Shown in pieces: positions 13,059 through 15,120 of a DNA stretch of 21,271 nt (the stretch's first letter is position 1; the number at the start of each line of letters is the position of its first letter). The notes below the pieces were generated by a model. It worked only from the letters and a program-made list of their open reading frames with translations. It was not told the origin of the DNA and did no database searches. Origin of the DNA: Candidatus Aenigmatarchaeota archaeon (GTDB taxonomy: Archaea > Aenigmatarchaeota > Aenigmatarchaeia > QMZP01); assembly GCA_043824495.1 (NCBI GenBank), contig JBDRSV010000018.1:1-21271 (forward strand), written 5' to 3'. Both the position numbers and the translations under genes were made by a program.

Positions 13059-13967
13059 ATGTCAATTAAATTATGGTTAATAGAAATGAGAGCGCCGTTC
13101 TTAACAGCTTCGATCATACCTGTTTTTATTGGTGCTTCATATGCATTCTATTCAACAGGATTGTTTAATTTATTACTGTTTATTCTGACTCTTATGGGAG
13201 CCATTTTCTTGCATTTAGGAACAAATCTGGCTAATGAGTTTTATGATTTTAATAATGGAACAGACAAGATAAACAAGAAAAGAAATCCTTTCTCAGGAGG
13301 TAGTGGATTGCTACCAGCCGGTCAAATGAATGCTGGTAGTGTTCATGGTTTATCTATAGTTTTCTTTGCTTTAGCATCTCTAATAGGATTGTATTTATTC
13401 TTTATACTAGGTCCTATTATTCTAGTCTTTGGTTTGATAGGAATAATATCAGGATACTTCTATACGAACACAACAGTAAACTTTGCAAAGAGAGGTATAG
13501 GAGAATTTCTCGTTGGTTTGAATTTTGGAGTGTTGTTAGTTTTAGGAACATTCTTCGTTCAAACAGGAATGTTATCACTTTCAGCTGTGTTCGTTTCTCT
13601 CCCAATAGCGTTCTTAGTAACCGGAATATTATATATCAACCAATTCCCTGATTATGAAGCTGATAAAAAAACAGGAAAAACAAATCTTGTAGTTAAGATG
13701 GGAAGGAAAAAGGCAGTTACAGGATACATTTTCCTAATATCTCTGGTTTATGCAACAATAATATTATATGTTGCTTCAGGATTCTTACCTTTAGCTTCTT
13801 TACTGGCTTTAATCACAATACCGATCGCAATGAAATCGGTTAAAATAGCAAAGAAACATCATTCAGCTTTCCCTCAAATAATTCCAGCTCAATCATCAAC
13901 AATAATGAATCATCTTGTTACGGGAATAATATTAATAATTACAATTTTGATATCCACTCTACTCTAA
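13059..13967 (+). CDS. menA: 1,4-dihydroxy-2-naphthoate prenyltransferase (UbiA superfamily)
   Basis: MRAPFLTASIIP, NLANEFYDFNNGTD, GEFLVG.NFG, NQFPDYEADKKTGK.NLVV motifs. Confidence 0.85.
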   Translation: MSIKLWLIEMRAPFLTASIIPVFIGASYAFYSTGLFNLLLFILTLMGAIFLHLGTNLANEFYDFNNGTDKINKKRNPFSGGSGLLPAGQMNAGSVHGLSIVFFALASLIGLYLFFILGPIILVFGLIGIISGYFYTNTTVNFAKRGIGEFLVGLNFGVLLVLGTFFVQTGMLSLSAVFVSLPIAFLVTGILYINQFPDYEADKKTGKTNLVVKMGRKKAVTGYIFLISLVYATIILYVASGFLPLASLLALITIPIAMKSVKIAKKHHSAFPQIIPAQSSTIMNHLVTGIILIITILISTLL

Positions 13968-14188
13968 TTCTTCATCTCGTTTTTCTTTTCTGTCTCTTCA
14001 GGCATCATAGTCTTCTCTTTTATTGTAATTGGTATAATACCTAAATCCCACTCCAGAGCAGCTATAAGTGCAGGGCTTGATCCACTCGGAGCATCAACAA
14101 GAGGAGGAGCTCCTTGTGCTAATTGTAATCTTCTCGTGGCTATTATTCTAACCTTCTCAAATCTTGATTGTTTTTTTCCTTCTTTCAT
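13964..14188 (-). CDS. rpoK: DNA-directed RNA polymerase subunit K (Rpo6/omega)
   Basis: SRFEKVRIIATRRLQLAQGAPPLV...IAALEWDLGIIPITI; SD GGTGA 3 nt upstream of the ATG. Confidence 0.9.
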   Translation of the reverse strand: MKEGKKQSRFEKVRIIATRRLQLAQGAPPLVDAPSGSSPALIAALEWDLGIIPITIKEKTMMPEETEKKNEMKN

Positions 14189-14211
14189 AATTCACCGTCC
14201 TTAATAGAAAC

Positions 14212-14228
14212 GGGAGGGAATCCCTCCC
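14212..14228. terminator. GC-rich perfect hairpin between the micro-ORFs and rpoK (terminator or regulatory)
   Basis: GGGAGGG-AAT-CCCTCCC; followed on the minus strand by GTTTCT. Confidence 0.4.
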
Positions 14229-14277
14229 AAATATAAAGAGTTAAAAGATACATAGGTAGTTTATCTTTAACTAATCA

Positions 14278-14316
14278 CTATTTTTTCTTTTCCTTTTTTT
14301 GCTTTTTCTTGGCCAT
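14278..14316 (-). CDS. Candidate 12-aa basic micropeptide MAKKKQKKEKKK
   Basis: SD GGGTGA(T) 4 nt upstream of the ATG; double stop TAG TGA. Confidence 0.45.
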   Translation of the reverse strand: MAKKKQKKEKKK

Positions 14317-14371
14317 TAAATCACCCAAATTTATATTAAATAAATAAAAAACATTTATCTAGACGAATGTA

Positions 14372-14410
14372 TTATTCATCATCTTCATCATCTTCTTCTC
14401 TCCAAAACAT
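14372..14410 (-). CDS. Candidate 12-aa acidic micropeptide MFWREEDDEDDE
   Basis: SD GAGGAGGT 5 nt upstream of the ATG; TAA stop. An in-frame upstream ATG at 14425 would add MRRYN. Confidence 0.45.
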   Translation of the reverse strand: MFWREEDDEDDE

Positions 14411-14610
14411 ATTATACCTCCTCATATTGTGAAATGTGAGTTTTTGAATTGGTTTTCAAAATAAAAATTGATTTGATTAAAAACCAAAAAGGGGTGAATT
14501 TTCTTCTGTTGTCTAAAGAAAAACCGATTCATAGAAATCAATCTTCAGACATATGTTCCCTATCAGAATATCAAAGGAACTGTGTTTATTTGGTACTTTG
14601 GACTTATAAA

Positions 14611-15120
14611 CTAATATCTTAACAAAGAAAAAACGTCATACCCTCTTAGCTTCTCTATACCGTGTAGAGTATATAGTTCTATAACGAAGCAAAAAAGTGG
14701 CTTACCACCCAATTTTTCTACTAGTTTAGCTGAGGCAGCTGCAGTTCCACCAGTTGCTAGAAGATCATCTACAACGAGAACCTTTTGCCCTTCTTTGATC
14801 GAACCCATTTGAATTTCTAGAGAATCAGATCCATACTCCTTTTCATAAGACTCCTCGAATGTTTCACCCGGAAGCTTTCCTTTCTTCCTTATAGGAACAA
14901 ATCCTACTCCTAGCTCATTTGCAAGGGCCCCTCCAATTATAAAGCCTCTAGATTCAATACCAGCTACTAGCTCCACGTCTCTATTCTCGTATCTATCAGA
15001 AATGATCCGTACAAGTTCTTGGAATGCCTCGGGGTCCCTTAGAAGAGGGTTGATATCCTTGAACATAATACCCTCTTTAGGAAAATTTGGTATGTCCCTT
15101 ATTCTCCTTTTTAGGTTCAT
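14611..15120 (-). CDS. apt: Adenine phosphoribosyltransferase
   Basis: IPNFPKEGIMFKDI, GIESRGF, RKKGKLP, YEKEYG and the PRPP-binding VVDDLLATGGT motif. Confidence 0.97.
   Translation of the reverse strand: MNLKRRIRDIPNFPKEGIMFKDINPLLRDPEAFQELVRIISDRYENRDVELVAGIESRGFIIGGALANELGVGFVPIRKKGKLPGETFEESYEKEYGSDSLEIQMGSIKEGQKVLVVDDLLATGGTAAASAKLVEKLGGKPLFCFVIELYTLHGIEKLRGYDVFSLLRY

Follow-up and report, generated by a model that had tools for sequence, protein, structure and literature searches.

A tandem of oppositely charged micro-ORFs upstream of rpoK in an Aenigmatarchaeota genome and its likeness to two micro-gene families of the order

Prothymosin-alpha and histone H1 form a disordered, charge-driven complex, in which a polyanion neutralizes a polycation. 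In bacterial SSB (...DDDIPF) and in gp2.5 of phage T7, an acidic C-terminal tail has an aromatic residue at its end. DSS1/Sem1 (PF05160) combines small size, acidity and disorder with Trp and Phe anchors. On the basic side, eL41 (PF05162) and bacterial peptides of the bS22/bL37 type, of roughly 20-35 aa and composed almost exclusively of K and R, fill RNA pockets and are often missed by gene callers. Among bacterial proteins, the acidic DNA mimic DMP12 acts on HU, a basic nucleic-acid binder (PMC3643605); this was the only analogue found in the literature on acidic DNA-mimic proteins, and a search for charged small proteins in archaea or DPANN yielded nothing relevant.

Here we describe two micro-ORFs of 12 codons, the acidic ORF1 and the basic ORF2, located between the genes apt and rpoK of a DPANN-type archaeon (Candidatus Aenigmatarchaeota archaeon), whose genome of about 1.0 Mb (29 contigs, 36% GC) is 80% complete. 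The stretch of DNA analyzed comprises 21,271 nt and is referred to below as the window. ORF1 and ORF2 are candidate short members of two families of micro-ORFs occurring in related genomes, designated A (acidic) and B (basic). In size and composition, family B and ORF2 resemble the eL41-type peptides, from which family B differs in being K-rich, in starting with MA, in its variable length and in the lack of a PF05162 match for its members of 20-42 aa; B peptides are not known to associate with ribosomes. Canonical A members are like free-standing SSB or gp2.5 tails, with D/E runs punctuated by W and usually ending in F, although those tails belong to larger proteins and ORF1 has no terminal aromatic residue. 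The likeness of A to DSS1/Sem1 lies in the small size, acidity, disorder and Trp and Phe anchors, but DSS1/Sem1 is a eukaryotic protein of about 70-90 aa, whereas A has no Pfam match. A putative A-B pair would be analogous to DMP12-HU and prothymosin-alpha-H1, in that a polyanion neutralizes or occupies a polycationic nucleic-acid binder; those systems, however, consist of folded proteins or much longer intrinsically disordered ones without a two-gene micro-operon, whereas A and B are peptides of 12-36 aa.

Position and expression signals of the two micro-ORFs

A preliminary description of the window had put forward a tandem of oppositely charged 12-aa ORFs on the same strand, each with a Shine-Dalgarno (SD) sequence, and this arrangement was confirmed: both ORFs lie on the minus strand between apt and rpoK and are separated by 55 nt (Table 1). 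ORF2 contains 8 K among its 12 residues, together with Q and E. An in-frame alternative ATG of ORF1, at 14425-14423, overlaps the SD of this ORF and would give MRRYNMFWREEDDEDDE. ORF1 and ORF2 are both purine tracts of low complexity; in ORF1, the acidic run is a near-perfect (GAAGATGAT)x2 repeat of the slippage type. A recent nonsense truncation of ORF1 was excluded, since read-through past its stop codon yields no more acidic sequence.

Table 1. Positions of the genes, micro-ORFs and signals discussed in the text.
Feature	Contig or locus	Position	Strand	Remarks
apt (adenine phosphoribosyltransferase-like, 169 aa)	window	14611..15120	-	Pfam PF00156
Four T4-T5 runs after the apt stop codon	window	14458..14523 (14523-14519, 14490-14486, 14483-14479, 14467-14458)	-	probable apt terminators
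SD of ORF1, GAGGAGGT	window	14416..14423	-	5-nt spacer; 7-nt match to AGGAGGTGATC, ATG at aligned position 13
ORF1, MFWREEDDEDDE	window	14372..14410	-	ATG 14410-14408, TAA 14374-14372; net charge -7; candidate short family A member
T6-A-T3-A-T3 run between the ORFs	window	14338..14351	-	by sequence, resembles an archaeal oligo-T terminator
SD of ORF2, GGGTGAT	window	14320..14326	-	3-nt spacer; 6-nt match (GGTGAT), ATG at aligned position 14
ORF2, MAKKKQKKEKKK	window	14275..14316	-	ATG 14316-14314, TAG 14280-14278, TGA 14277-14275; net charge +7; candidate family B member
rpoK TATA box, TTTATATT within CTCTTTATATTTG	window	14230..14237	-	downstream of both micro-ORFs; top 0.03% of PWM sites genome-wide
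GC-rich perfect palindrome, GGGAGGGATTCCCTCCC	window	14212..14228	-	between rpoK TATA box and SD; hairpin in RNA fold
rpoK (RNA polymerase subunit K/Rpb6, 74 aa)	window	13964..14188	-	Pfam PF01192
Acidic copy, MLFVEEEDESEEEGFEEEESDMF, 23 aa	C14	2100-2171	-	TATA box, SD, terminator; beside cytidylyltransferase gene
Basic copy, MAAKKKKTAKKTTKKTTKKKKR, 22 aa	C28	3687-3755	+	polylysine; TATA box, SD, terminator; methionine aminopeptidase neighbor
Basic copy, MVLKKKKNTVKK..., 34 aa	C11	13287-13391	+	polylysine; TATA box, SD, terminator
Basic-then-acidic unit, genus g10	L251	1335-1450
Basic-then-acidic unit, family f2	L263	1908-1988	-
Basic-then-acidic unit, family f2	L272	1409-1501	+
Basic-then-acidic unit, family f2	L274	1406-1492	+
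Fused ORF, MAAKKKKAAPAKKKQAEEEEEESEEEW, 27 aa	L292	1019-1102	+	one relative; basic N-half, acidic C-half ending in W

For the scoring of SD sequences, upstream regions were aligned to the anti-SD complement AGGAGGTGATC. Among the 885 long ORFs in the genome, 216 are preceded by a match of at least 5 nt, their ATGs falling at aligned positions 11-16 and most often at 14; the SD strength and spacing of ORF1 and ORF2 equal those of real genes of this genome. The earlier statement that the micro-ORF SDs are at least as strong as that of rpoK is borne out by matches of 7 nt (ORF1) and 6 nt (ORF2), compared with 5 nt for rpoK (GGTGA, ATG at aligned position 13). Within the 113 kb outside long ORFs, only 16 ATG-initiated ORFs of fewer than 30 aa have an SD of at least 6 nt at gene-like spacing. 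Genome-wide, ORF1 and ORF2 are two of only nine ORFs of 8-25 aa that combine a net charge of at least 6 (of either sign) with an SD of at least 5 nt.

Frames of this kind might arise by chance, if two ATGs in a purine-rich spacer simply came to follow purine words resembling an SD. A poly-purine tract is open whichever frame is read, SD words consist largely of purines, and the DNA of the 422-nt interval is not conserved, only low-complexity scraps having been recovered when it was searched in 40 relatives. Dinucleotide shuffles of the interval, on the other hand, produced at least two such SD-led ORFs in only 5 of 20000 cases and opposite charges of +6 and -6 or beyond in none of 20000. These counts, and the resemblance to family members documented below, make chance frames quite improbable.

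The genes surrounding the pair are not arranged as in related genomes. In 29 relatives from the same taxonomic family, whose rpoK products are only 45-58% identical to that of this archaeon, PAC2 lies directly upstream of rpoK, followed by rpsB and rpl19e. Neither apt nor a charged micro-ORF was found upstream of rpoK in any of these 29 loci, and the only same-genus genome has no such ORF pair at rpoK. The rpoK locus is thus rearranged in this genome and the association with rpoK is not conserved, so that a link of the pair to this gene is not supported. PAC2 was not found in this genome (80% complete). A search for closer relatives through apt in metagenome and genome contigs gave nothing above 58% identity, no identical apt protein is recorded, and in a search of 5.8 billion proteins rpoK had no match other than itself. 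Bacterial MAGs are the source of most of the best apt relatives (at most 58% identity), a few others being from Woesearchaeota, Bathyarchaeia and other archaeal MAGs, which suggests that apt is probably of bacterial origin.

Promoters were sought with a PWM derived from this genome (AAAA..TTTAAATA), which places the TATA start most often about 28-32 nt ahead of the ATG, an indication of many leaderless genes. By this matrix, neither ORF1 nor ORF2 is preceded by a canonical TATA box. Ahead of ORF2, AT-rich and TATA-like sequence is confined to the T6-A-T3-A-T3 run, which is not a canonical promoter by the PWM, and the only strong minus-strand match in 14150-14650 is the TATA box of rpoK. This last position contradicts the suggestion, made in the preliminary description, that the ORFs are leader peptides. 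As uORFs they would tune rpoK, e.g., through ribosome stalling or destabilization on the D/E or K runs; they do lie on the strand of rpoK, 95-220 nt upstream of it, and both D/E runs near the N-terminus and poly-lysine runs perturb elongation in bacteria. However, a strong TATA box belonging to rpoK itself is located downstream of both ORFs, the RNA fold of the interval is unremarkable (z = -1.6), and neither an ORF inside the rpoK leader nor alternative RNA structures, as expected of an attenuator or uORF, were found. Such ORFs precede rpoK in none of the 29 relatives, and the same peptide types occur elsewhere as free-standing genes. A role as uORFs of rpoK is therefore improbable.

The interval was also considered as a non-coding element, i.e., an sRNA, a C/D-box RNA, or a protein-binding or cassette-boundary sequence. 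Its AUGAUGA words resemble C boxes, and a Logan contig from SRR26275509, an independent assembly identical over 14418-13950, ends at 14418, inside the SD of ORF1, so that strains may differ on the apt side of this junction. In opposition to this, Rfam 15 gave no match at gathering scores, and a permissive search returned only chance-level ones (E about 1-4, far below the cut-offs); the interval has no significant structure and is not repeated elsewhere in the genome (BLAST). A non-coding function thus appears very improbable. ARAGORN found no tRNA in the interval. The specific candidate of a C/D-box sRNA was rejected, as there is no CUGA D box.

Acidic and basic micro-genes in this and related genomes

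Three further SD-led, charged and unannotated micro-ORFs were identified in this genome, each with a visible TATA box and terminator: an acidic copy on contig C14 and two basic copies on contigs C28 and C11 (Table 1). The interval between apt and rpoK has no DNA similarity to these canonical copies; ORF1 and ORF2 are consequently not fresh duplicates. The basic ORF of C11 (MVLKKKK...) matches a 42-aa ORF (MVLRRK...) adjoining the methionine aminopeptidase gene in the same-genus genome. The GNAT gene adjoining the C14 copy is not conserved beside family A genes in relatives.

Family A was defined by synteny, with the flanking genes as anchors, its members being convergent with a gene of the cytidylyltransferase type (PF01467). 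In 25 of the 29 loci of the taxonomic family, and also on contig C14, the cytidylyltransferase gene is accompanied by an acidic, SD-led micro-ORF, 16-36 aa in length. The members show the pattern M-[FIL]-[WFL]-x, D/E run, [IVL]W, D/E run, usually with a C-terminal F. Their ATGs are at aligned SD positions 13-16, and the members inspected have a TTTAAA-type TATA box (TTTAAA[AT]) 45-65 nt upstream and a T-rich terminator. In within-genus pairs, the A ORF has 67-94% nucleotide identity versus 42-89% for the flanks, the ORF being generally better conserved, and length differences are multiples of 3; the intergenic DNA of congeners is about 42-79% identical (89% downstream in the closest pair). By these sequence features, family A is a real, unannotated gene family.

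ORF1 reproduces the N-terminal half of the A pattern. It has an SD-led ATG at an aligned spacing of 12-16 and the N-terminal M-[FIL]-[WFL]-[KR or x] followed by a D/E run, as seen when its N-terminus (MFWR-EEDDEDDE) is set beside those of family A (MIWKSEEEDDD, MFWEDEEDE, MFWLQDDDDEDD). Across 47 genomes of the taxonomic family, there are only four instances of the motif M-[FI]-W-[KR]-x-(D/E)4, three of them in canonical A genes and the fourth in ORF1, and this otherwise exclusive occurrence speaks against chance frames. The central [IVL]-W and the C-terminal F are both absent from ORF1, which stops after 12 residues; a few syntenic A members (16-18 aa, genera g23 and g36) also have no terminal F. 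ORF1 has no canonical TATA box of its own, and a T6 run does follow it. Since the cytidylyltransferase slot is held by the C14 copy (MLFVEEEDESEEEGFEEEESDMF), ORF1 would be an extra copy.

Family B comprises SD-led micro-ORFs of 8-34 aa that start with MA[AKR][KR].... They adjoin either the cytidylyltransferase gene or a methionine aminopeptidase gene (PF00557), the latter in 8 of the 29 relatives (8-31 aa) and on contig C28, where the basic ORF is divergent from it. Syntenic examples include MAKKKRKKKKKR and MAKKKAKSKKKR (12 aa each), MAKKKAAKKGGKKKKK and MAARRRKKTARKRKR; MAKKKAAKKGGKKKK is of the same type. Their SDs are mostly GGAGG(T), while ORF2 uses GGTGAT. A DNA pattern composed of an SD, MA and basic codons had 19 matches in the 47 genomes versus 0 for its reversed counterpart; micro-ORFs of 5-34 aa account for 11 of these matches. 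The same pattern also caught proteins of 100 aa in two genomes (MAK(R/K)(K/R)KKAA(K/R)KYYIMKSGRK...), which look like a lysine-tailed chromatin-type protein.

ORF2 fits family B in its N-terminus (MAKKK), length (cf. MAKKKRKKKKKR and MAKKKAKSKKKR) and composition: it has the start M-A-[AKR]-[KR]-[KR], at least 60% K/R, a length within 8-34 aa and an SD-led start at an aligned spacing of 12-16. That MAKKK and the length are shared with syntenic B genes is a further argument against chance frames. Neither a canonical TATA box 55-85 nt upstream nor a neighboring methionine aminopeptidase or cytidylyltransferase gene, both characteristic of family B, accompanies ORF2; the syntenic B copy of this genome is the one on contig C28.

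A profile search with the A alignment gave no match in 1.84 billion representatives and recovered only one known member in 301 genomes of the phylum, this method being blind to such short, biased sequences; a search with the single peptide recovered only this genome itself. Pfam and NCBIfam contained no match for A or B members (none in Pfam at E up to 1 for A members of 34-36 aa, and none at E up to 10 for B members of 20-42 aa), and eL41 (PF05162) was not found in this genome. Homology of ORF1 and ORF2 to families A and B is not provable, given the low complexity of the two purine tracts and the near-perfect twofold repeat that makes up the acidic run of ORF1. The equal length of 12 aa and the -7/+7 symmetry, emphasized in the preliminary description, are real features of the pair, but they are incidental, since family members vary from 8 to 42 aa (basic) and from 16 to 36 aa (acidic).

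The most likely reading of the sequence comparisons, with about even chances, is that ORF1 and ORF2 are translated extra, shortened copies of the order-wide micro-protein families A and B. The intact translation signals, the lack of recent duplication and the rapid divergence of intergenic DNA argue for selection acting on both ORFs. Counting against it are the strong T-runs behind apt, the T6 run dividing the two ORFs and the absence of such a pair at rpoK in the only same-genus genome. A rather unlikely alternative is that they are non-functional relics, i.e., an old duplicated or translocated A/B pair that lost its promoter in the rearrangement joining apt to rpoK, was shortened and is now decaying. 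We retain it because neither ORF has a canonical promoter, ORF1 has no W and F hallmarks and the sequence is of low complexity, the acidic run being a slippage-type repeat; in addition, both ORFs are shorter than the canonical copies of this genome (23, 22 and 34 aa) and the locus is rearranged on both sides relative to relatives. Against decay stand the SDs of 7 and 6 nt, the ATGs, the optimal spacing and the stop codons, all intact in a pair that, having no nucleotide similarity to the canonical copies, is not recent, in a taxonomic family whose intergenic DNA diverges fast. Moreover, some syntenic and evidently maintained orthologs have only 8-12 aa (B) or 16-18 aa (A).

Adjacent and fused A and B genes and their candidate roles

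In six genomes representing two families of the order, a basic gene is followed by an acidic one, the two sharing a single TATA box and a single terminator. In the three genomes of genus g10, B lies 24 nt upstream of A, with a single TATA box before B and a single terminator after A. The acidic-gene SD of the g10 unit (GAGGTG) is complementary to CACCTC just past the stop codon of this gene, and a long-range stem could mask the SD. In family f2, a basic-then-acidic unit is located beside the cytidylyltransferase gene in three of five genomes, the other two having B only; its acidic gene has no ATG but, at the equivalent position, a GTG or TTG start. The distance of this start from the stop codon of B, 10-20 nt, points to translational coupling of B and A. 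One relative carries a fused ORF with its own TATA box, SD and terminator, flanked by a surface-protein-like gene and a gene for a large membrane protein. The acidic-then-basic order of the pair described here constitutes a third kind of A/B juxtaposition. In the third family, f3, A and B are found at the two separate anchors, and most genera keep them at separate loci; adjacency is therefore frequent but not obligatory. The idea of a cognate pair, raised in the preliminary description, accordingly gains comparative support from the tandem in six relatives of two families and from one fusion, as a recurrent rather than an obligatory arrangement.

From composition and arrangement we infer a mechanism in which a nucleic-acid-binding polycation is combined with an aromatic-anchored polyanion that neutralizes it or mimics its target. 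Ribosomes would load at both SDs of a transcript that is either weakly promoted or due to read-through. As a polycation of the 'MAKKK...' type, the B peptide would bind nucleic acid (rRNA or DNA), and the A peptide, a polyanion with a hydrophobic/aromatic N-terminus, would be its counter-ion or chaperone or, alternatively, a nucleic-acid mimic occupying basic surfaces. A and B would buffer each other's charge, and the position beside rpoK would be an accident of rearrangement, not a functional link.

A more far-reaching proposal, tenable but doubtful, is that of an order-wide two-component polyelectrolyte system, in which oligo-lysine peptides and Trp/Phe-anchored oligo-Asp/Glu peptides would form a disordered, charge-neutral complex, with the present pair as a second, minimal version of 12+12 residues. 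If true, this would be the smallest known pair of a basic nucleic-acid binder and an acidic chaperone or mimic, with its genes kept apart, joined in a micro-operon or fused into one 27-aa zwitterion.

The pair beside rpoK is probably a minor copy; the broader outcome is the description of two micro-gene families that span the order and are repeatedly paired. ORFs of fewer than about 30 codons are passed over by gene callers, which makes such genes invisible in every annotated DPANN genome. The two families encode a polyanion and a polycation of 8-36 residues, with their own promoters, ribosome-binding sites and terminators in the members inspected, and they are retained in many genomes of ~1 Mb, where little dispensable DNA survives. 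The recurrent tandem and the fusion make a functional A-B link testable with synthetic peptides. If A and B do work together, they would provide a minimal natural model of charge-driven disordered complexes and could fill a gap in the present picture of the nucleoid or the ribosome of reduced archaea.

Two minor observations concern the surroundings of rpoK itself. Downstream of this gene there is a convergent gene of the UbiA/MenA type, with a 4-nt overlap. Upstream, the GC-rich palindrome (Table 1) is situated where an archaeal repressor site (operator) or a 5' hairpin would lie, and is a candidate for either role.
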